In this document: positions 5,575 through 46,585 of the stretch, piece after piece
Numbering within the stretch: position 1 is the stretch's first letter
How the letters are laid out: the number at the start of each line of letters is the position of its first letter
Assembly (NCBI GenBank): GCA_964513845.1
Contig: CAZENT010000002.1
Location: forward strand, 75,916 to 139,915
Length of the DNA stretch: 64,000 nt
Reading direction: 5' to 3'
Source: an uncultured Pseudomonadales bacterium
Lineage (GTDB): Bacteria; Patescibacteriota; Microgenomatia; UBA1400; MFAQ01
Notes under the pieces: model-generated
Seen by the model: the letters and a program-made list of their open reading frames with translations, nothing else
The model's database searches: none
Told to the model about the DNA's origin: nothing
Position numbers and translations under genes: made by a program

Positions 5575-5964
5575 CTAATCGTGATGAATACCCAAAAGAT
5601 GCAACAAGCCATGGCAAGCCAAAAACTCGATTTCCTCATCGATAATTCTGTTCCATTGTAGAGCCTGTCTTTTGGCTTGTGGATAACAAATCACAATGTC
5701 TCCCAGATTCAGACCATCAAAGTCACCTGGCATCTCCACTCCTTCCTCCAAAGGAAACGAGAGCACATCTGTGACCTTATCTTCCCCAAAATACTTTTTC
5801 TCCAACTCCTTAATTTTTCTCTCCCCCACCACAGACAAAGAAATCTTAACCACACCACTAATGACTTCTTGTTCCTCAAGAGTTTTAACCAAAGCCTCTT
5901 TTACTCTCTTTCGATCAAAGGGATATCTGCTGTCTGCGGCAATGTCTAGTTCAAGTTTTACCAT
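5575..5964 (-). CDS. ybeY: Endoribonuclease YbeY (rRNA maturation factor)
   Basis: C-terminal HGLLHLLGIHHD zinc-binding motif characteristic of YbeY. 129 aa. Confidence 0.88.
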   Translation of the reverse strand: MVKLELDIAADSRYPFDRKRVKEALVKTLEEQEVISGVVKISLSVVGERKIKELEKKYFGEDKVTDVLSFPLEEGVEMPGDFDGLNLGDIVICYPQAKRQALQWNRIIDEEIEFLACHGLLHLLGIHHD

Positions 5965-5965
5965 A

Positions 5966-6394
5966 TTACTGGTACTTGGCCATCACAATTTTATTAATTA
6001 CAGACCCATCGGCCTTGCCTCGAAGTTTACCCATCACCGCTCCCATCAAGCGTCCGCCCGTAAGCCCGGTTTCAGCGGCAATTTTTGCCACCTCAGCTTC
6101 GACTTCAGACTCCGGCATCAAAGAGGGTAAGTATTTCTCAATCAAAGCCAATTCATATTTTTCCTGATCTGTACGAGCCACATCGCCAGCCTTTTCATAG
6201 ATCTCTATCGCATCACGACGTTTCTTGGCTTCTTTAGTCAGTACACGAATTACTTCTTCATCGGCCGGTTCTCCTTTTCGCAGGTCTATAGCATAGCCCA
6301 TCTCCGAAAGAATAAACTTCAAAGCACCAAGCAAACGAGTATCTCCCGCTTTGAGAGCAGTAACTGATTCTGACTTTATCTGTGAATATAACAT
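5966..6394 (-). CDS. yqeY: GatB/YqeY domain protein
   Basis: 142 aa. Yqey-like helical domain (LKFILSEMGY...KRRDAIEIYEKAGD...GGRLMGAVMGKLRGKADGS). Adjacent to rpsU as in Bacillus rpsU-yqeY. Confidence 0.75.
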   Translation of the reverse strand: MLYSQIKSESVTALKAGDTRLLGALKFILSEMGYAIDLRKGEPADEEVIRVLTKEAKKRRDAIEIYEKAGDVARTDQEKYELALIEKYLPSLMPESEVEAEVAKIAAETGLTGGRLMGAVMGKLRGKADGSVINKIVMAKYQ

Positions 6395-6430
6395 AAGAAC
6401 ATTATAAACCCGAAGTAACGAGTAAATCTC

Positions 6431-6667
6431 TTATTTTGTTAACCCAGCTGCACGCTTGTTACGACGACGAATTCTAGCCGAAGCTTTACGAAGTTCAATC
6501 ATCTTAATATTACGTATAGTTGAAGGTTTCTGGAAACCGGTCATTCCCACAGCTTTTACCCTTTCGAGTCCTGAATCCTCATAAGTCAATTTTTTGAATT
6601 CACTAATGAGTTGCTGTGTGGTTTGTCCTTGTTTTTTTCTTGCAACGAGTGCCATAAATAGATACAC
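6431..6667 (-). CDS. rpsU: 30S ribosomal protein S21
   Basis: Small, very basic protein (...ELRKASARIRRRNKRAAGLTK). Neighbours yqeY. Start may be the internal Met at 6652. Confidence 0.6.
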   Translation of the reverse strand: MYLFMALVARKKQGQTTQQLISEFKKLTYEDSGLERVKAVGMTGFQKPSTIRNIKMIELRKASARIRRRNKRAAGLTK

Positions 6668-6714
6668 CTACCTTTCTTGTACTCAATCCGCCTTTGGCGG
6701 ATAAAATATAGTCA

Positions 6715-22913: not shown

Positions 22914-24563
22914 ATGAAAACAGAAAATGAAATTACATCATTTCCGCTTGAATATCCTCATGTTGAGATACCCCAGTTCAACACTCAAATTTCCCTCATC
23001 TTGCGCTCGGAAGCTCCTCTCGACCTCTCTCAGTTTTCTCAAAAACAAAGAGATGATCTAAACTCGGCTGTCGTCATTGCCGGTCAAGCCGGTCGAATGT
23101 GTTACTCCAACTCGTCCCCCTCTCCTCTCGACTACAACACCAAATCAGACAAATATCGAGAAACAACAGACAGAATTTCCCAACAAACCAATGAGTCGGG
23201 CCACGGCTCAACCCGTGAACATGTTCACTACACTTTCAAAATTGACGGCATCTCCAGAAACGCCGTATATTACCTACACTCACACCCTCACTACGTTTCC
23301 GACATGCAGTCCCAGCGATACTGCAATTTTTCCGAAACAAAACCCATTATTCCCGAGTTCGAAGATCCGGCAACAAATCAAAAGGCTGCCGAAGCAGTCA
23401 GAGATCTTGTCGCGGGCTACACTCAGCTTTATGAGCTTCTCACCCCTACGACAAAAGCCTTAATTCTCGAAAGATTTTCGAGCAAAAACAATTCCAAATG
23501 GGAAAGAAAAATCAATGATGACGCCGGCAAAAAGGCTCAAGAAATTGCTCGCTATCTTCTTCCTCTTGGTACTCCCGCAAACCTCTATCACACCATTTCC
23601 GAGCTTACCCTCCTCCGACTCTATCATCAATCCCAAACCATGCCTGTTCAGCCGGAAATGCGGCAAATAATTGAGGGCATGGTGATGACAGTTGCTCAAG
23701 TTGATCCGAGAATCCTTGATGAAATCAAAGAACCTCTCGAAGCTGATCTCGAGCCGGTTCTTCAACTCCAAGATTTTTCAAAATTTTCTGAAGAATATGA
23801 TGCCCTTCTTTCCGGCTATCAAGTCAAGTTAGATGAAGACAACCAGTTGCCCTCAAAAAAACTTGCCCGAGCCGTCAGAGAAACTCTAGGAAAAAGTTCT
23901 CAAGAACTTCCCGACGCAGATGCCCTGGACCTTCTTCTCAATCCTGCCATAAACAAAATGCTGGCTCAAACCAATGGCGATATCACCATCGATCGTTTGG
24001 GGCAGTGTTTAAACCAGGTCAGTCTATCTTTCCTCGTTTCTCTAAGTCACGCCGCCAACGAACAGTTCCACCGTCATCGTGCTTTTAATCACACCGAACA
24101 AATTCAGCTCGCCATTCCCCAAGACGACTACGATATCTTAGTACCGACCATTTTAGAAAAAAATCCAGAAGCCCGAGAGCTCTATCTGGCCATTCAAAAA
24201 CAGCACAATCAAGTACTTCAAGAGTTATTTAATCAAGGCGTTCCACTGGACAAACTACAGTATCTCTTTACCAACGCCACCCGTGTCAGGAAATCCGTCG
24301 ACGCTCCTCTCGGTGCTATCTACCATTTTCTAAAACTTCGCACTTGCCTAAACTCCCAGGAAGAAATCTATCACATTGCCGTTTCTCTCACCAAACAAAT
24401 CTGCGATCTAGACCCAGCACTAAAACCATATTTTAGTTATCCCTCACCTTGTGGTGTTCGTCGCCTTGGCAATGAAAAACCATTTTGCCCAGAAGGCGCT
24501 CATTTTTGTGGAGTCCGTATCTGGGACGTTTCCATCGACGACTTTCCCAAAAGATATATCTGA
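22914..24563 (+). CDS. thyX: Flavin-dependent thymidylate synthase ThyX, tandem-duplicated (fused pseudo-dimer)
   Basis: N-domain HGSTREHVHYTFKIDGISRNAVYYLHSHPHYVSDMQSQRY aligns with the ThyX core (HETPFEHIVFTF...FRHRIASYNELSGRY) but RHR is replaced by SHPH. The C-domain retains HRHRAF. The LPLNLY...RSLMNFLNLR-like segments ARYLLPLGTPANLYHTISELTLLRLYHQ and DAPLGAIYHFLKLR each appear once per half. Confidence 0.75.
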   Translation: MKTENEITSFPLEYPHVEIPQFNTQISLILRSEAPLDLSQFSQKQRDDLNSAVVIAGQAGRMCYSNSSPSPLDYNTKSDKYRETTDRISQQTNESGHGSTREHVHYTFKIDGISRNAVYYLHSHPHYVSDMQSQRYCNFSETKPIIPEFEDPATNQKAAEAVRDLVAGYTQLYELLTPTTKALILERFSSKNNSKWERKINDDAGKKAQEIARYLLPLGTPANLYHTISELTLLRLYHQSQTMPVQPEMRQIIEGMVMTVAQVDPRILDEIKEPLEADLEPVLQLQDFSKFSEEYDALLSGYQVKLDEDNQLPSKKLARAVRETLGKSSQELPDADALDLLLNPAINKMLAQTNGDITIDRLGQCLNQVSLSFLVSLSHAANEQFHRHRAFNHTEQIQLAIPQDDYDILVPTILEKNPEARELYLAIQKQHNQVLQELFNQGVPLDKLQYLFTNATRVRKSVDAPLGAIYHFLKLRTCLNSQEEIYHIAVSLTKQICDLDPALKPYFSYPSPCGVRRLGNEKPFCPEGAHFCGVRIWDVSIDDFPKRYI

Positions 24564-24569
24564 GGTTTC

Positions 24570-26579
24570 CTAGTCTTTTGAGTTTAATTCCTCTTTTTTA
24601 GTTCCTGGTTTGTGCCAGCTAGCCCAGTTACAATTTGGGTAGTCTTCACAGCCATAGAAGTCACGTCCGGTGCGAGTTTTTTTCAAAACCACTCTCTTGC
24701 CACACTTCTCACACTTCACCCCATCGACATACTCGATAAAAGGTGCGGTATATTTGCACTCTGGATATCGCGAACAAGACAAAAACCTACCAAACTTTCC
24801 GTCACGGATTACCTCTTCACCCTCATGACAGATTGGGCACTTTTTTCCAGTTTTTGTCGCTGGCACACCCACTCTCGCACTATCCTTATCCACTTTCAAA
24901 ATATTGTCTCGAAATGCACCCCAGAAGTTACTGAGCATTTTTTTCCATTTCAATTTTCCATCAGCAATATCATCCAGTCCGCTTTCCATCTTGGCCGTAA
25001 ACTCATACTCCATCTCGCGAGGAAAGTTGGCCACCAAAAAATCTACCACAGCCATACCAATCGATGTGGGGAAGAATTTACGTTCTTTTTGCTCCACATA
25101 GCGTCTATCAACAATTGTGGAGATAATGGCAGCGTAGGTACTCGGTCTTCCGATACCTCGCTGTTCCAGCTCTTTAATCAATGAAGCATCATTAAATCTG
25201 GGGGGTGGCTGGGTAAATTTTTGATCTCCAATCACCTTATTCTTTTTTAGCTTTTCTCCGATAGCTAGCACCGGCAAAACCTGCTCTTCATCTTTGTCTT
25301 TTAAGAATAACTTCTTCCATCCGGCAAACTTAATTACGGCTCCAGTCGTTGTTAGTTCATTGTCCCCTGCCGTTACCACAATCTTGGTGTCATCAAATAT
25401 TGCATCGGCCATCTGGCAACCCACAGTTCTTCGCCAAATCAATGAGTACATCTTTTCTTGATCATGAGCCATTTCTTGTCCCACAAATTTATCTGGTGAA
25501 ACTTCAACATGTGTTGGACGCACGGCTTCATGAGCTTCCTGAGCCACCACTTTTCCTGAAGTTTTGTAAATTCTAGGAGTACTTGGCAAAAACTCAGGGC
25601 CATACTTCTCTCCTACATATTTACGAATTTCCTCAATCACACTTGGTGCTAAGTTAAAAGAATCGGTACGGTGATAAGTGATGTCGCCCTGCTCATATAG
25701 CTTTTGAGCCACATTCATCGTTTTCTTGGCCGACCAGCCAAGAACATTGGCCGCTGCTTGCTGAAGAGTGGAAGTTTTAAACGGTTGATGTGGACTTGCT
25801 TTTCTCTCAGACTTTTTGACGTTAGAAACAATATAATCTGCCTTTTCCAGCTCTGCCAATACTATTTTGGCCTTTTCTTCATCATGAATCTCAGCCTTCT
25901 TACCCTTAATTCGAGCTAGCTCTATCTCAAACTTTTCTCCCTTATCTGTTTCCACCTGTACTTTGATCTGCCAGTACTCGTCAGGTTTAAATTTTTCGAT
26001 TTCTCTTTCGCGTTCGACAATAAGGCGAACCGCCACACTCTGAACCCGTCCGGCCGAAAGACCACGACGAACTTTTTTCCACAAAATTGGTGACAATTTG
26101 TAACCCACCAAACGATCCAAGAAACGCCTGGCTTGCTGAGCGTCAACCATGTTCATATCGATGGCTCTTGGGTGCTCCAAAGCCTCCAAAATGGCCTCCT
26201 TGGTGATTGAGTGAAAAGCAATGCGTTTAAAAACCAGGTTCTCTTTTTTGGTTAGCTTTCGAGAATTCTTTAAAATGTGTTCCACATGCCAAGCAATTGC
26301 CTCTCCTTCACGGTCAGGGTCAGCCGCCAGAATAACTTCATCTACTTTAGAAGCTGCATCCTCAAGCTTCTTCACTTGTTCTCCCTTACCTTCCATCAGC
26401 TCGTACGAAGGCACAAAATCAAACTCACCTTTGCCTTCTTCTTTAATATCAATGCCAAACTTACTTTTGGGTAAATCACGCACATGTCCCATGGAGGCCA
26501 TGATCACATAATCGTTCCCTAGGTACTTGCCTAAGCTTTTTGTTTTAGTTGGAGACTCAACGATAATTAGTTTACTCAT
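24570..26579 (-). CDS. topA: DNA topoisomerase I
   Basis: Toprim N-terminus MSKLIIVESPTKTKSLGKYLG, active-site region, and C-terminal zinc-ribbon repeats (CPICHEG...CKYTA, CEKCGKR...CNW). Confidence 0.95.
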   Translation of the reverse strand: MSKLIIVESPTKTKSLGKYLGNDYVIMASMGHVRDLPKSKFGIDIKEEGKGEFDFVPSYELMEGKGEQVKKLEDAASKVDEVILAADPDREGEAIAWHVEHILKNSRKLTKKENLVFKRIAFHSITKEAILEALEHPRAIDMNMVDAQQARRFLDRLVGYKLSPILWKKVRRGLSAGRVQSVAVRLIVEREREIEKFKPDEYWQIKVQVETDKGEKFEIELARIKGKKAEIHDEEKAKIVLAELEKADYIVSNVKKSERKASPHQPFKTSTLQQAAANVLGWSAKKTMNVAQKLYEQGDITYHRTDSFNLAPSVIEEIRKYVGEKYGPEFLPSTPRIYKTSGKVVAQEAHEAVRPTHVEVSPDKFVGQEMAHDQEKMYSLIWRRTVGCQMADAIFDDTKIVVTAGDNELTTTGAVIKFAGWKKLFLKDKDEEQVLPVLAIGEKLKKNKVIGDQKFTQPPPRFNDASLIKELEQRGIGRPSTYAAIISTIVDRRYVEQKERKFFPTSIGMAVVDFLVANFPREMEYEFTAKMESGLDDIADGKLKWKKMLSNFWGAFRDNILKVDKDSARVGVPATKTGKKCPICHEGEEVIRDGKFGRFLSCSRYPECKYTAPFIEYVDGVKCEKCGKRVVLKKTRTGRDFYGCEDYPNCNWASWHKPGTKKEELNSKD

Positions 26580-26635
26580 TACTTATAAAAATATACATTA
26601 AAAACAGAACCAGTATTCTACCACTTACCATTTTT

Positions 26636-26672
26636 CCCAAAAAATACCTCCGCCTAAACTTTCAGGCGGAGG
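26636..26672 (-). terminator. Intrinsic terminator (minus strand) at the 3' side of the GC-rich non-coding block, just upstream of the topA start
   Basis: Minus-strand ccuccgcc-ugaaaguuua-ggcggagg hairpin followed by uauuuuuugg. Confidence 0.7.
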
Positions 26673-27235
26673 TCTGCGTGTGTAAACGAAGTGACCTTTA
26701 AGCTCACCAGTCCATGACGTGCGGAGACAAACAGTGTCTCGCTCAGTCAGCGGAGGGTAGCTTTGTGTGGCAGCGGAATCCCGGGCCACAGTCACATCGT
26801 TTTAAAATAAGGTCACAGCTTATCGAACTCTTTTTTCACGGCATGATCCTTTCGGCGCTTGTTCATCCTGCTCAGGGGTGGCGTGCGTATAGCGGCCACC
26901 ACAGGATGAGTGTTGATAAGATACCAGGGTGATCGCCGGCAAAGACTCAGCGGGGCGCACAATATGTGTACCCAAGCATGTCAGCCCGCAAATCGTTCCT
27001 CCTGGTACGCCGCCCAAAAAATGGCGGTGTCTTTTAAGGGGGGAACGTTAGTTCCCGCCTTGCTTACATGAAGTCGAATTCTTTCTTCAAAAAGTCCTCC
27101 TTTCTGAAAAAAAGACTCATCAGGCTTGCCCGGAATGGGCGTGTGTGTGCCCGATGAGTTAAAACTGTGATCAATGTACATCCTTTTTAGGATAACCGAT
27201 AATATATCACCAATTCCCCCATTTGTCAAGTATAT
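26673..27235 (-). ncRNA. Candidate large structured non-coding RNA of unknown identity; RNase P RNA and tmRNA not verified
   Basis: About 560 nt with no credible ORF. GC is visibly higher (about 55%) than in the flanking genes. Many local hairpins. Ends in a minus-strand terminator. Possible P4-like UCCGGGC/GCCCGGG pairing about 370 nt apart, but consensus motifs were not matched. Confidence 0.35.
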
Positions 27236-27238
27236 AGG

Positions 27239-28753
27239 TTACTTAATAAACAAAGGTACCAGCTCTTTAGCGATTGGCGCCGCCACGGCACTGCCCTCCC
27301 CACCCTCCTCAACCAACACCGTTACCACCACCCAGTCTTTAACATTATTACTCACAGGAATCACCATTGTTAGCCAAGCATTAGGCAAAGTATCCAAGCC
27401 ACCTTTCTGAGCTGTACCTGTTTTACAATATATTTTTCCGGCGTAAGGATACAAAGGAAAGGCTGTTCCCCCCGGGCTACAAACTGCCTGCATCCCTTCA
27501 AGAATTATTTTTCTGTTTGTTTCGTTTATTTTCAGATCCACACAAGGTCCATTGCCTACCAATCTCGGTGAGCATTTCAAGCCAGACACCACCGCCGCCG
27601 TCATCATATTTATCTGTAAAGGTGTTGTCATCAAATCTCCCTGGCCAATAGACATGTGATAAGTATTTCCCAAAAACCACTTTTCTCCAAAAGTTTTCTC
27701 TCTCCAGTAAGGCGAGGGCAAAAATCCTTTTGACTCTCCGGGCAAATCAACTCCCGTTTTTTCTCCCAAACCCAGTTTTTTACTCCAAGACACCAAACCA
27801 TCTACTCCCAACAACTCTCCCGTTTTATAAAAGAAAATATCATTGCTACGCGCGATAGCTTTTACCACATTTATTTGTCCCTCTGTCTGGCCATACTTGT
27901 CCAATAGCCAGTTTCCGAAGCGATACGCTCCAATCACAATTTCACCACTATCTTGTATCAAAGTTTCTTTGGTAATTTTCTTATCCTCCAAGGCCGCAAG
28001 GGCCGGAACTATTTTATATACCGACCCAGGGGCAAAATCCCCCGACAAGGCTCTATTAAACAACGGTTTCTTTTCCGTGTTCGACAACAAACTTTCTACA
28101 TCTTTAAACTCTCCCCCAAAGTCCGATCTTTTCCCATCCGACACAAATAAATTACTATCAAAAGAGGGTGCCGAAACCAAAGCCAGCACTTTTCCATCAA
28201 CTGTGGTCACTACCACGGCTCCACTTTTCCCCGAAGTGACTAAGGCATTTTTCAAGGCCGCAAAGGCTGTTTGCTGCACCGCCATGTCCAGATTAGTCAC
28301 TAAATTTTCTCCCGGAATCGGCTCTTTCCTAACTAGCTCTGTTCTACGCGAGCCCTGGGCAGTTTCTTCAACTACCGTTTCACCCGGAGAACCGGCCAGT
28401 CTTTTTTGATACTGACTTTCCAGTCCATCTCTGCCAATCAAAATATCTCCATTTACTCCCGCTTCCTGCGGTTTCCCGGTATAGCCCACCAATCCCGCAG
28501 TTACCTCACCATAAGGATAAAAGCGCACCACCTTACCCATATTTTCCACATTCATCGCGATATTCTTCCCATTTTTATCGGTAATCACTCCCCTTTTGGC
28601 TTCACTCAGCTCCACTCTCACCATATTTCCCTTGGCGAGATCCGAAAAATGACCTCCCATGAAAACAGTCAAAAAAAACGTTCTTGAAAATCCAACTGCA
28701 AATAATAAAATTAAAATCACACTTGTCAGGCCGTATGACTTATTCGTACTCAT
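27239..28753 (-). CDS. mrdA: Penicillin-binding protein 2 (class B transpeptidase)
   Basis: N-terminal TM, dimerisation domain, transpeptidase domain with GSVYK (SxxK), SGN-like and KTG (KTGTAQ) motifs. Follows mreD. Confidence 0.85.
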   Translation of the reverse strand: MSTNKSYGLTSVILILLFAVGFSRTFFLTVFMGGHFSDLAKGNMVRVELSEAKRGVITDKNGKNIAMNVENMGKVVRFYPYGEVTAGLVGYTGKPQEAGVNGDILIGRDGLESQYQKRLAGSPGETVVEETAQGSRRTELVRKEPIPGENLVTNLDMAVQQTAFAALKNALVTSGKSGAVVVTTVDGKVLALVSAPSFDSNLFVSDGKRSDFGGEFKDVESLLSNTEKKPLFNRALSGDFAPGSVYKIVPALAALEDKKITKETLIQDSGEIVIGAYRFGNWLLDKYGQTEGQINVVKAIARSNDIFFYKTGELLGVDGLVSWSKKLGLGEKTGVDLPGESKGFLPSPYWREKTFGEKWFLGNTYHMSIGQGDLMTTPLQINMMTAAVVSGLKCSPRLVGNGPCVDLKINETNRKIILEGMQAVCSPGGTAFPLYPYAGKIYCKTGTAQKGGLDTLPNAWLTMVIPVSNNVKDWVVVTVLVEEGGEGSAVAAPIAKELVPLFIK

Positions 28754-28754
28754 A

Positions 28755-29174
28755 CTAATAGTTTATTCTTATCGTTTCCGTTCTCTCAAACCAAGAAAGC
28801 GCCAACAATCCTGAAACAAACACCGACAGTACTTCCCAAAAACTCCAGTTAAGCCCAAACGCTATATCAAAAACGATACTGCTTACCACACCCAAAAGCA
28901 CTATCGCCCAACCCATCTCTTTTCTAGTACTCATCAAAAAAGATAAGCCGCCGACAACCACCAAAATAAACAAGCTTGGCAATCCAATCGACAATCCTCG
29001 CAGAACCGAGATAAAAATACCCACCACAAAAGCCAGCCAATAAACACCGCTCCAGTTTAATAGTGTCAATAGAAATGGCCAAAAAAGACCCCAGCCCAAA
29101 ACTCCCTCACCCAAAAGCACCATGATCAAAAGAGTCAGAACTGTTTTTGTGGTATTCTTTGATTGCTTATCCAT
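28755..29174 (-). CDS. mreD: Rod shape-determining protein MreD
   Basis: 139-aa polytopic membrane protein from MDKQSKN, lying between mreC and mrdA. The upstream 27 codons of the track ORF overlap the mreC start and are probably not coding. Confidence 0.6.
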   Translation of the reverse strand: MDKQSKNTTKTVLTLLIMVLLGEGVLGWGLFWPFLLTLLNWSGVYWLAFVVGIFISVLRGLSIGLPSLFILVVVGGLSFLMSTRKEMGWAIVLLGVVSSIVFDIAFGLNWSFWEVLSVFVSGLLALSWFERTETIRINY

Positions 29175-29178
29175 TTTT

Positions 29179-29943
29179 ATGACGTCAACAAAGTTAAATC
29201 TTCTTCTACTGCCGTTACTGGTGTCAATATTACTGTCAACAGCGACCAAACTCAAGATAGGTAAGACTGTTGATAGTATCTTTTACACTATTTTAACCCC
29301 TATCCATCGACCCATCGGTTTCCTTCGTCAAACAACCGATACTCAGCTTTCTTTTATTAATAGTCTTCCTCGTCTAAAACAACAAAACAAAGATCTCATC
29401 TCCCAAAACGCTCGCCTCATGTCCGAAAATGAGCTCCTTAAACAAACCCTAACCGACGCCAAAACCGTTACCCTTTCCCAAAACTTTAAATCAGTTCTCC
29501 CTGTCCGTCTCACCGGGTCCATAGGCAACAACTCGGTATCTTCCTCTCTCTCAATAGACAAGGTCAAAAAAGGACAACCTCTGGTATTGGGAAAAATTCT
29601 TCTGGGAATCGTCGACGAAGTCAAAGGCTCAGTGATCAACATCACTCCCTTAGACAATGAACGTATCGAGGTATTTGCCGTACACACTTCTTCCGGCCAA
29701 AAAGGACAGTACAAATATCTTGGAAACACTCCTCAGATTACAGATATTCCCAGTCTCTCACCCATTGCTTTTAGTGACTATGTTTTTACCGAGCCAGGCG
29801 AGCTCATCCCCGCCAATCTCGTCGTAGGGAAAATCATCAAAATTATTTCTGCTCAACAAGAACCCCTCCAAAAAGCTCAAATAAAGCTGGAAACCACTCT
29901 TCGTGATGCCAACGAAGGCTTGGCCATCATTTTAGAACCGTAA
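29179..29943 (+). CDS. mreC: Rod shape-determining protein MreC (on the opposite strand to mreB/mreD)
   Basis: From MTSTKLNLLLL: N-terminal TM, a coiled coil (LKQQNKDLISQNARLMSENELLKQTL), and a beta-domain ending YVFTEPGELIPANLVVGKI (TSG...FP.GlpvG-like). Confidence 0.75.
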   Translation: MTSTKLNLLLLPLLVSILLSTATKLKIGKTVDSIFYTILTPIHRPIGFLRQTTDTQLSFINSLPRLKQQNKDLISQNARLMSENELLKQTLTDAKTVTLSQNFKSVLPVRLTGSIGNNSVSSSLSIDKVKKGQPLVLGKILLGIVDEVKGSVINITPLDNERIEVFAVHTSSGQKGQYKYLGNTPQITDIPSLSPIAFSDYVFTEPGELIPANLVVGKIIKIISAQQEPLQKAQIKLETTLRDANEGLAIILEP

Positions 29944-45953: not shown

Positions 45954-46367
45954 TTATTTCATGCCCATTTTCTTAAGTTCATTCATAATGTACGTTTTTA
46001 GGTGGGTATTAAAGAATCCAACCGTCATCACTCCGTATTTACTTATCTTTTTATATGTTCCTTTTCCCATTGATGGTATTGGATTTGTCGTTTTAATTGT
46101 GCTTGGTTCAATATCCAGCATACCTCCCCAAAATTCCCTAGCAATTACCAAATCATTATCCTTAAACGTTTGTAAATAGAAACACAGCTTTCCTTCCCTT
46201 ATCTGACAGATAATCTTCAAATATCTTACGAATTGTTTTATCACCCCTGGATCCGAGTTTGTTACCCTTATTGCATGGTTTGTTGTTTTATTTCCCTCTC
46301 CCCAATACAAACCCAAAGCAAGATACTTGAGTTTGATCTCGTCTCGTGTCAATCTTTTTTGATACAA
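45954..46367 (-). CDS. LAGLIDADG-family homing endonuclease (single-motif type)
   Basis: KYLALGLYWGEGNKT matches the LAGLIDADG motif including the acidic residue. About 137 aa, I-CreI-like size. Confidence 0.5.
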   Translation of the reverse strand: MYQKRLTRDEIKLKYLALGLYWGEGNKTTNHAIRVTNSDPGVIKQFVRYLKIICQIREGKLCFYLQTFKDNDLVIAREFWGGMLDIEPSTIKTTNPIPSMGKGTYKKISKYGVMTVGFFNTHLKTYIMNELKKMGMK

Positions 46368-46585
46368 AACGGTTCACCGTTAGGGTTTGCCTTAATATAA
46401 TTTGCTTCTGACCTAATTCTTCGAGAAATTCCATACTTATCCATCCAATAGATAATTTTGTGTGTCTTAAGGTCTAAATTTTTTGCTATCTCCGAAAGTG
46501 ATTGTTTCTTTACCAAATACAACTCTCTCAATTCACTCTCTGTGGGAATTCTTGCCATACATTCATTATCCCGAAAAATACCCAA
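46349..46585 (-). CDS. HTH (NUMOD/sigma-r4-like) DNA-binding fragment overlapping the endonuclease ORF by 19 nt in another frame; possibly the frameshifted N-terminus of the same homing endonuclease
   Basis: KKQSLSEIAKNLDLKTHKIIYWMDKYGI helix-turn-helix. The reading frame ends where the LAGLIDADG ORF begins. Confidence 0.4.
   Translation of the reverse strand: MGIFRDNECMARIPTESELRELYLVKKQSLSEIAKNLDLKTHKIIYWMDKYGISRRIRSEANYIKANPNGEPFCIKKD

Follow-up and report, generated by a model that had tools for sequence, protein, structure and literature searches.

Background

Dual-function small RNAs (sRNAs), such as Staphylococcus aureus RNAIII/hld, Escherichia coli SgrS/SgrT and Bacillus subtilis SR1/SR1P, have a stand-alone promoter and an intrinsic terminator, and are structured RNAs of several hundred nucleotides (nt) in which a small open reading frame (ORF), led by a Shine-Dalgarno (SD) sequence, encodes a conserved peptide. 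Stalling leader peptides, typified by ErmCL, CatA86L, CmlAL, MsrDL and TnaC, are encoded by very short SD-led ORFs with a conserved amino acid sequence, the stop codon of which stands beside RNA structure that a ribosome would melt. Large ornate non-coding RNAs (ncRNAs), such as OLE, GOLLD, ROOL, raiA and HEARO, are 500-800 nt long, GC-rich relative to their genomes and densely structured, with a patchy distribution and an unknown function. Each of these properties has a likeness in the element described here, a block between the genes for PBP2 (mrdA) and topoisomerase I (topA) in a 64,000-nt stretch of DNA from an uncultured bacterium (contig CAZENT010000002.1, positions 75,916 to 139,915 of the forward strand). 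This whole stretch is hereafter called the window, and positions are given in its coordinates unless a relative is named.

Homologues of the PBP2 of the window are annotated mostly as Candidatus Collierbacteria (Microgenomates group of the candidate phyla radiation (CPR), or Patescibacteria). The CPR bacteria have tiny, densely packed genomes and, to our knowledge, almost no characterised regulatory RNA. For comparison, 177 related loci (with handles of the form L001) were collected by one genome-collection scan, one metagenome scan (PBP2 alignment) and 11 exact-protein contig look-ups, the relatives being examined only in PBP2-centred neighbourhoods. We establish the anatomy of the block, the strength of its predicted folding, the absence of a known family for it, its polymorphism as a cassette and the codon conservation of its mini-ORFs. 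The interpretation we favour, to which we assign a probability of about 0.5, is that the block is a ribosome-engaged, dual-function structured RNA with a presumed trans-acting role. It appears to be an independent accessory RNA gene of ~555 nt on the minus strand, with a predicted strong promoter, and to belong to a family of structured-RNA cassettes, undescribed and highly variable, that occupy a recombination hotspot between the PBP2 and topA genes.

Results and Discussion

A predicted transcription unit between the PBP2 and topA genes

A preliminary description of this stretch, made from its letters, had proposed a GC-rich, ORF-free block between mrdA and topA. The gap between the two genes, 26580..27238 (659 nt), is indeed flanked by them as described, and is the sole long gene-free gap in the window; another apparent gap, of 584 nt at 6131..6714, is occupied by real minus-strand genes. 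The block itself (26636..27195) has a GC content of 50%, with a 200-nt maximum of 54%, compared with 42.4% for the window, 43-46% for the flanking coding sequence and 21-44% for the other intergenic gaps. Thus, its GC exceeds that of coding sequence, whereas the other spacers fall below it. The GC island is therefore real, although the contrast first reported for it (55% against flanks of about 40%) was overstated. The longest ORF in the block encodes 82 amino acids (aa), and its TTG start is part of the -35 hexamer of the unit promoter. The seven block ORFs of 36-82 aa are all without a Pfam or NCBIfam match at E<=0.1, and no reading frame at the block is conserved across the relatives, in agreement with the block having been called ORF-free. 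The features used below are, in the direction of predicted transcription and followed by those flanking the unit:

27201..27229, minus strand: unit promoter of the sigma-70 type; -35 TTGACA at 27229..27224, 17-nt spacer, -10 TATATT at 27206..27201
26638..27195, minus strand: predicted primary transcript, ~555 nt, from the inferred start at ~27195 to the T-run of the terminator; 50% GC
27180..27193, minus strand: 5'-end hairpin AUCCU-AAAA-AGGAU, read from the sequence and present in the centroid fold
27116..27158, minus strand: 5' domain, a predicted 10-base-pair (bp) helix CUCAUCGGGC / GCCUGAUGAG enclosing the hairpin GCCC-AUUCC-GGGC
27096..27100, minus strand: SD GGAGG of mini-ORF 1, separated by 5 nt from the TTG start
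27064..27090, minus strand: mini-ORF 1, TTG AAG AAA GAA TTC GAC TTC ATG TAA, MKKEFDFM and stop (translation checked)
27041..27058, minus strand: predicted stable hairpin GGGAAC-UAAC-GUUCCC, within the element GCGGGAAC, which starts 5 nt after the stop of mini-ORF 1
26947..26991, minus strand: third SD-led short ORF, with AGGAGG, a 7-nt spacer and TTG; 14 residues and stop, MRADMLGYTYCAPR with TTG read as Met
26847..26851, minus strand: SD-like AAGGA of mini-ORF 2, separated by 7 nt from the GTG start
26813..26839, minus strand: mini-ORF 2, GTG AAA AAA GAG TTC GAT AAG CTG TGA, MKKEFDKL and stop (translation checked)
26639..26673, minus strand: intrinsic terminator, with a 12-bp stem ACCUCCGCCUGA / UUAGGCGGAGGU and a 4-nt loop (stem-loop 26673..26646)
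26580..26623, minus strand: topA's own promoter and leader, outside the RNA unit; extended -10 TG-G-TAGAAT, with TAGAAT at 26620..26615
24570..26579, minus strand: topA, with Toprim, Topoisom_bac and Zn_ribbon domains
27239..28753, minus strand: PBP2/mrdA, with PBP_dimer and Transpeptidase domains

The predicted promoter begins 10 nt past the PBP2 stop codon, matches the consensus at 11 of 12 positions and has in addition an extended -10 TG at 27208..27207; the position of its -10 hexamer was used to place the transcript start at ~27195. The same promoter, tatatacTTGACAaat, also stands at unit heads in L001, L003, L010, L015 and L086, and similar promoters are found at the head of each tandem unit in other relatives. 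At the opposite end, the terminator stem is followed by an A and six U (26644..26639). This tail exists on the minus strand only, with no T-run after the hairpin on the plus strand, and the minus-strand terminator recognised in the preliminary description is thereby confirmed, with its stem at 26673..26646 and ATTTTTT after it. The near-consensus promoter, the two SD-led mini-ORFs and the behaviour of the block as a cassette at a hotspot had escaped that first reading. Other promoter-like sites in 26400..27400 amount to two weak 9/12 matches, namely 27175..27203, a plus-strand site at the block's upstream edge, and 27373..27344, a minus-strand site within the PBP2 gene; neither of these suggests an antisense transcript. 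It is the location of promoter, terminator and translation signals, and not the folding, that assigns the unit to the minus strand.

Short reading frames conserved through synonymous change

The two eight-codon mini-ORFs encode closely similar peptides, MKKEFDFM and MKKEFDKL. The codon pattern AARAARGARTTYGAY has just two matches in the 64-kb window, both within the unit and on the minus strand, with 0.02 expected by chance. A regular expression spanning the complete ORF, in which KK follows the start codon and D stands between two pairs of free codons ahead of the stop, was also applied to the window together with the first 162 loci (~2.5 Mb when both strands are included). All eight hits fall in units of the PBP2-topA gap and all eight have an SD 5-8 nt upstream, compared with a chance expectation that we estimate at ~0.2. 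They comprise the two ORFs of the window, a duplicate of mini-ORF 1 in L002, MKKEFDKL in L003, MKKEFDKL in L086 and L089 (which have the same sequence), MKKKLDKL in L025 and MKKLLDKQ in L015. A looser ORF search over 176 loci and the window added a single hit, which is presumably spurious as it lies inside a topA gene.

Hence, besides the lineage of the window, four others have an ORF of the octapeptide type. The lineage of L025 has a PBP2 that is only 58% identical and yet carries the ORF, which therefore outlasts everything else in the RNA. Start codons (GTG, TTG, ATG) and stop codons (TGA, TAG, TAA) vary among the copies, as does the codon for Leu-8 among the MKKEFDKL copies (CTG, TTG or CTT). 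Across the three MKKEFDKL copies all five sense-codon substitutions are synonymous, with a probability of ~4e-5 under random placement, and within the cassette body only the SD with mini-ORF 2 of the window can be aligned to L003. This pattern indicates that the mini-ORF peptide is probably under purifying selection across lineages, and points to a selected translated product or nascent chain rather than an RNA motif. At eight codons the mini-ORF would rank among the smallest bacterial reading frames under selection. The third SD-led ORF of the unit (26947..26991) has no homologue in any relative and is a weak candidate only.

Predicted folding and the spacing of stop codons to helices

The minus strand of the block has a minimum free energy of -223.1 kcal/mol, with z = -7.2 and -8.0 in two independent dinucleotide-shuffle runs. 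As coding controls we used six 560-nt segments of the two flanking genes on the same strand, for which z ranges from -1.7 to +2.4. The numerous stable hairpins that were initially noted are thus borne out far beyond chance. A long-range pairing of UCCGGGC with GCCCGGG, earlier likened to the P4 helix of RNase P RNA, is absent from the predicted minimum-energy fold, and no RNase P model matches the block.

The 5'-end hairpin is kept in L001, with a loop longer by one nt. The 5' domain has 83% identity to its L001 counterpart (blastn, gap positions 83-124) and, the promoter region aside, is the only part of the transcript in common with the alternative cassette of that locus; there it has the same predicted topology with another outer helix (CCAUUC/GAGUGG as against CUCAUC/GAUGAG). 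At least five types of 5' end occur among the units. The type shared by the window and L001 has a long helix around GCCC-loop-GGGC, while that of L003, L086, L163 and L174 has two UAGUCUGG...CCAGUU hairpins, with P1 being formed by three different stem sequences of the same shape. Such stem changes with a kept shape show, as far as predicted structures allow, conservation at the RNA level by compensatory stems.

A second class of mini-ORF occurs in the cassette family closest to that of the window. L003, L086 and L015 (two copies) have SD-led ORFs of 6-9 codons that encode the unrelated peptides MINYKDYKE, MTNTRM, MKKLLDKQ and MKDTTVL. In all four copies the stop lies exactly 5 nt before a module that consists of GCGG, a 2x2 purine loop, a 6-8-bp hairpin and then UCGC-GAA, the inner stem of which is built from four unrelated sequences with an identical predicted topology. 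This 5-nt spacing from mini-ORF stop to covarying helix is thus held in related cassettes. Mini-ORF 1 of the window likewise stops 5 nt before GCGGGAAC-UAAC-GUUCCC. The hairpin formed there may be the counterpart of the 'stop + 5 nt + GCGG' module of the relatives, although the window has no match to the remaining, 3' consensus of that module (..AGUCGCGAAGAG).

On termination, a ribosome occupies some 9-12 nt of the mRNA beyond the first stop-codon base, from which it would follow that just the outer GCGG/UCGC helix opens. The SD of mini-ORF 1 is itself predicted to lie in the 5-nt loop of a 13-bp hairpin. When the footprint of a ribosome at the mini-ORF 1 stop was blocked in a constrained fold, 30 base pairs were lost and 16 gained, the gained pairs joining 27029..27011 to 26857..26837, a segment that includes both the start codon of mini-ORF 2 and its SD. 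The terminator hairpin was unchanged in all constrained folds, with the footprint at either or both of the mini-ORF stops. As fold predictions are fragile at this length, the constrained folds show only that coupling between mini-ORF translation and the RNA fold is plausible. Even so, this 555-nt RNA offers a concrete case in which such coupling might be studied in uncultured organisms.

The same observations bear on the possibility that the octapeptide (MKKEFDKL or MKKEFDFM) is a diffusible product, the unit being a small mRNA whose structure stabilises it and shields it from RNases and Rho-dependent termination. That the peptide is kept through synonymous change, that two ORF copies per transcript would double its output, that promoter and SD sequences are strong and that nothing in the cassette body but the ORF is conserved from the window to L003 would all suit such a product, and gene products of about eight residues do exist, as illustrated by the 7-residue product of mccA in microcin C. 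Against this, no gene for a modifying enzyme, exporter or receptor accompanies the cassette, its neighbours being core genes or unrelated cargo. The peptides of the second class (MINYKDYKE, MKDTTVL and MTNTRM in L003, L015 and L086) vary freely while their distance to the RNA module is fixed, which argues for action in cis rather than for a peptide product. Moreover, stabilisation would not call for 350-450 nt of 3' sequence in which modules are conserved and covary. On balance, we consider a diffusible octapeptide unlikely.

An accessory cassette at a variable site

Two loci from other sequencing runs attest to the block itself. L177 (SRR11845628) is 100% identical over the 3' end of the PBP2 gene, the whole unit and topA, and L002 (SRR11845627) is 100% identical as far as its sequence extends, 283 nt into the gap; the block is therefore not an assembly artefact. 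In L004, L165, L166-168, L169 and L172, with PBP2 proteins 77-86% identical, the PBP2 gene is followed by topA after 58-90 nt, and these short gaps contain the topA promoter and leader and no RNA unit. The absence of the unit from several close relatives identifies the element as accessory. Among these, the 'empty' site of L004 (5512..5560) retains TAGTCTGG, the first bases of the 5' hairpin motif of the L003/L086 type, followed by a T-rich run and without a promoter; this stretch may be the deletion scar of a unit.

In L001 the body of the cassette is replaced. The PBP2 gene of this locus has 99.3% nucleotide identity to that of the window, and the promoter and the initial ~20 nt of the transcript are likewise shared. 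The ensuing ~650 nt cannot be aligned to the window except for one 42-nt helix, and the alignment resumes around the T-run of the terminator and the topA promoter. As topA of L001 is only 88.5% identical, compared with 99.3% for PBP2, a recombination junction is placed just inside the unit. More generally, the PBP2-topA site of Collierbacteria has zero to three tandem ORF-free RNA units of 150-900 nt, or small protein genes. Three tandem units are present in L010, where the intergenic region reaches up to 2.2 kb, and in L013, and two in L011, L012 and L025. Every tandem unit is headed by a near-consensus promoter of its own, and a terminator-like hairpin with a T-run closes most of the units inspected; beyond the promoter and 5' end, the units of an array show no mutual sequence repeats. 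The sister units tested fold as strongly as that of the window (z = -10.6 for L001, -6.2 for L086 and -5.7 for L003).

The protein genes at the site, each with its own promoter and terminator, encode an SPFH/Band 7 membrane protein of ~360 aa (L015 1642..2724, and the gap of L083, L085 and L087) and a 101-133-aa protein that weakly matches Nuc_deoxyrib_tr (E = 1e-4, below the Pfam cut-off; L003 5556..5936; L174 and L176 4602..4934). L015 1120..1521 is also among the protein cargo of the site. PADLOC defence models gave no match for the SPFH/Band 7 or the Nuc_deoxyrib_tr-like cargo.

Two further observations concern these relatives. Between the RNA unit and topA, L174, L175 and L176 (~5640..5990) have two small SD-led ORFs, MPNMKIWSYDSSDDSDHSSDDESNTTPEMFGS and MVKIKEKVLYCNQDQDVDTNDDSSADSGRTVETE, that were not called as genes; both are acidic and rich in Ser and Asp, with a terminator-like hairpin after each. 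In addition, a hairpin motif GUUUGGGCAUA-loop-UAUGCCCAGUCUG recurs in L013 (units 2 and 3) and L014 (unit 2) in at least four copies with varying loops and stems, and the related motif UAGUCUGG...CCAGUU recurs in other units. The AGUCUG-flanked hairpins may be a protein-binding element shared by these RNAs.

The downstream edge of the cassette site is marked by the leader of topA, which runs to the ATG at 26579 and contains no SD. The ~45 nt upstream of the topA start (TG-n-TAGAAT and then ACTGGTTCnGTTTTTAATGTATATTTTTATAAGTA) are 92-96% identical across lineages, with or without a cassette, in L001, L003, L004, L083, L085, L086, L165 and L166; in these comparisons the PBP2 and topA coding DNA is only 77-80% identical. 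This stretch looks like a regulatory leader or promoter element of topA. One might then ask whether the RNA unit is itself a topA leader or attenuator, in which mini-ORF stalling, or supercoiling generated by transcription, sets the read-through of the terminator or the activity of the topA promoter. The unit, where present, is always directly upstream of topA and in the same direction, ending 18 nt before the topA -10. Attenuators classically consist of a short leader ORF and, after it, a terminator, and the SD-led mini-ORFs at 27090..27064 and 26839..26813 do lie upstream of the terminator at 26673..26646; moreover, the E. coli topA promoters respond to supercoiling. This proposal conflicts with the separate, conserved extended -10 promoter and leader that topA has irrespective of the cassette, with the several close relatives that have no unit, and with the tandem units, each having a promoter and a terminator, and the protein cassettes found at the same site. 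The terminator also lies 140 nt past the nearest mini-ORF, and in structure prediction it stays intact in the constrained folds, with no antiterminator. We therefore regard a role in topA attenuation as quite improbable.

The rapid turnover of the site raises another alternative, namely that the block is non-functional or selfish filler of a hotspot: decayed genes, palindrome-rich DNA or DNA-level cruciforms, with promoter and terminator kept and a functionless RNA. Turnover is extreme, as the body cannot be aligned between strains with PBP2 genes 99.3% identical; the unit is dispensable in relatives; and its plus strand folds nearly as well as its minus strand. However, in these small and tightly packed genomes the block is the only long non-coding gap in 64 kb, its GC lies above that of coding sequence, unlike other spacers, and a z near -8 is not a product of drift. 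Promoter, SDs, mini-ORF and terminator all stand on one strand, stem changes are compensatory and ORF changes synonymous only, and the block hairpins have no copies elsewhere in the window, which sets them apart from REP- or MITE-like elements. Filler thus seems a poor explanation, of about the same low standing as topA attenuation.

Known RNA families and other identities

The block had been suggested to be a divergent RNase P RNA or transfer-messenger RNA (tmRNA), or an undescribed large ncRNA, situated where rodA would be expected. At gathering thresholds, Rfam 15 finds four tRNAs in the whole window and nothing else. At E<=10 in 26450..27400 (951 nt) it returns only noise, with no match for RNase P, tmRNA or 6S RNA, and none for ROOL, GOLLD, OLE, raiA, HEARO or any ribozyme; the model that scores highest in the block, STnc630, lies over the terminator and reaches 25.6 bits, where its gathering score is 55. 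A search of the window with ARAGORN likewise yields no tmRNA. Units of the relatives are equally without Rfam matches (16 loci at gathering thresholds and 7 loci at E<=5). The covariance models that had been singled out at the outset (RNaseP_bact_a/b, tmRNA, 6S, ROOL, GOLLD and raiA) are thus all without a match in Rfam 15 at E<=10.

In the case of RNase P RNA, for which neither RNaseP_bact_a nor RNaseP_bact_b matches at E<=10, the locus is in addition empty or replaced in close relatives. This absence, together with the different sequence in L001, is incompatible with a universal essential RNA. For tmRNA, both ARAGORN and Rfam are silent, there is no tRNA-like domain, and the short ORFs of the block have an SD and a TTG or GTG start. 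Both of these assignments accordingly fail, as no Rfam model matches at E<=10, ARAGORN reports nothing and several close relatives are without the element. A GC-rich, ORF-free island beside cell-shape genes thus need not be RNase P RNA or tmRNA. Nor is rodA missing in any meaningful sense: in every relative examined topA comes after PBP2, whether immediately or beyond intervening accessory cassettes, as is usual for the clade, and rodA is present at the site in none of the relatives. A decayed rodA, or any protein with a frame conserved in relatives, likewise finds no support, since neither rodA nor a conserved reading frame occurs at the site.

Taken together, the suggestion that the block is a known RNA (divergent RNase P RNA, tmRNA, 6S or another large RNA) or that it codes for protein, whether as a decayed rodA or as the gene of a small protein, is effectively refuted. 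In its favour are the size of ~560 nt, the raised GC and the structure, which resemble those of known large RNAs, and the presence of the 82-aa ORF. Opposed to it are the lack of an Rfam match at E<=10 (STnc630, at 25.6 versus 55 bits, being the best) and of any ARAGORN hit, the absence or replacement of the element in close relatives with no rodA at the site in any of them, and the properties of the ORFs, which match neither Pfam nor NCBIfam, with the 82-aa ORF starting in the -35 hexamer and no frame being conserved. The original idea of a large structured RNA stands insofar as the block is non-coding in the ordinary sense, strongly structured, equipped with a terminator and without a family; it has to be amended insofar as two mini-ORFs would make it other than purely non-coding. 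The option of an undescribed large ncRNA survives, as no described RNA family matches.

Several more specific identities were considered and rejected. A hammerhead ribozyme, prompted by CUGAUGAG (27123..27116), has no model match at E<=10, and the motif is the 3' arm of the 10-bp helix. Likeness to the 5' end of 16S rRNA (AGAGTTTGAT in the mini-ORF region of L003 and CAGGATGAAC at ~26870 in the window) involves 9-10-mer matches that are expected by chance according to our own estimate; the motif varies at third codon positions and is therefore read as codons. By our rough count, the block has about nine GGA triplets in 560 nt, which is the expectation from base composition and does not point to a CsrA-type sponge. 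A dispersed palindromic repeat (REP, BIME or MITE) is contradicted by the absence of a second copy of any part of the block in the 64-kb window. A type I toxin-antitoxin (TA) repeat would call for features not seen here, there being no hydrophobic ORF and no promoter site suggestive of an antisense transcript. The block has no similarity to phage or plasmid records, and viral contigs gave no match to the 5' domain or the mini-ORF pattern. A k-mer search over 30 units for a motif common to all recovered only terminators, the topA leader and type-specific 5' ends. A literature search, which included the peptide strings, found no description of the element.

A proposed ribosome-engaged structured RNA

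We return to the favoured interpretation, a dual-function RNA with which ribosomes engage. The mini-ORFs MKKEFDFM and MKKEFDKL would load ribosomes by means of their SDs, and these ribosomes would terminate immediately before stable helices and so remodel the local fold; alternatively, the nascent octapeptide might stall the ribosome before the helices. The large and variable structured body would carry the trans-acting function. In the features that sequence can address, the block is what would be expected of a peptide-coding sRNA, namely a lineage-specific structured RNA with embedded putative mini-ORFs, and it falls outside every other family open to sequence or structure tests.

A number of points weigh against this interpretation. 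We infer transcription of the unit and translation of the mini-ORFs from sequence signals alone; ribosome-driven remodelling and any biological role are likewise putative. The plus strand folds with z = -6.7, nearly equal to the minus strand, and the counts of G-U pairs (15 vs 14) leave the strands indistinguishable; folding alone hence gives no strand assignment, and the palindromes may have a role at the DNA level. Minimum-energy folds of 560 nt are, in any case, unreliable in detail. With nhmmer and blastn across the 177 loci, the cassette body has no diverged homologue, only the 100% identical copies in L002 and L177, so that its fold is not open to covariation; beyond these two loci the searches recover only the promoter, the 5' domain and the topA leader. 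The window has no GAGUCGCGAAGAG module. ORFs of the MKK type are absent from L001, L173, L174 and most tandem units of the more distant relatives, and the codon argument draws on six ORF copies from five lineages, a small sample. Lastly, the units may be several unrelated RNA genes that share only their location.

A bolder proposal, which we hold to be unlikely, is that the cassettes represent, in CPR bacteria, a distinct and new class of structured RNAs with which ribosomes engage. Under this view they would be abundantly transcribed, strain-variable RNA genes that are swapped by recombination at a hotspot between core genes, in which translation of a mini-ORF, either that of the conserved octapeptide or a variable one, ends exactly 5 nt before a conserved helix. 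The RNA would then serve as sensor or effector for the state of translation; alternatively, the octapeptide would have the ribosome itself as its target. The hypervariability between strains might reflect conflict with phages or hosts. The probability that remains beyond the interpretations set out above belongs to something outside them.

Neighbouring genes

Further observations were made on other genes of the window. A ThyX (Thy1) protein of 549 aa is encoded at 22914..24563 on the plus strand, with Thy1 domain matches in two stretches; being about twice the usual length, it suggests a tandem-duplicated or fused ThyX. Two adjacent minus-strand ORFs with no family assigned, 46349..46585 and 45954..46367, overlap by 19 nt and lie between a promoter at ~46600 and a tRNA-Thr/tRNA-Tyr pair, immediately upstream of these tRNA genes, and may represent a single gene that a frameshift has divided. 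Directly upstream of the PBP2 gene, a 166-aa ORF (28755..29255, minus strand) with no significant family may be a divergent MreD. An ORF with an MreC domain (29122..29943) is on the plus strand, opposite to the 166-aa ORF, and overlaps it as listed, which indicates that the cell-shape genes do not form a simple mreBCD-mrdA operon.

Comparison with known systems

The cassette departs from each of the described systems in particular ways. Dual-function sRNAs have ORFs of 26-43 codons, as opposed to the two 8-codon ORFs of the block; the block shares no sequence or covariance-model similarity with them, and has a hypervariable body, is a swappable cassette and has no known base-pairing target. 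Stalling leader peptides control a downstream gene, whereas the block is without a regulated downstream gene and is followed by a strong terminator and topA's own promoter; it shows no antiterminator in the constrained folds, is accessory and can be tandem, and its octapeptide matches no arrest motif known to us. The large ornate ncRNAs have cores that are well conserved across phyla, in contrast to the short modules only, the restriction to one CPR lineage and the translated-looking mini-ORFs of the block family, and no covariance model of theirs matches the block.

Two other systems deserve comparison. Like the block, tmRNA is a structured RNA of a few hundred nt in which a frame of ~10 codons, offered to ribosomes, is flanked by helices or pseudoknots; unlike tmRNA, the block is without a tRNA-like domain or an Rfam match, has ORFs with their own SD and start, and is dispensable and strain-variable. 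Tandem sRNA and type I TA repeats (E. coli LDR and SIB; Qrr, OmrA/B) share with the block family the arrangement in tandem units with their own promoter and terminator, the position between conserved genes and the strain-variable copy number. They differ in that the block has neither the hydrophobic toxin ORF of 20-60 aa nor the antisense partner of the type I TA repeats, and in that, unlike tandem sRNA repeats, the units of an array here are unlike each other beyond promoter and 5' end.

Up to 2.2 kb in L010, and 659 nt in the window, are thus spent on structured RNAs that differ between near-identical strains. In packed genomes, the size of the site and the differences between strains argue for an accessory function under strong and perhaps diversifying selection. 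Among the known systems, the element most resembles dual-function sRNAs and short ribosome-stalling leader peptides in function, and the large ornate RNAs in size.

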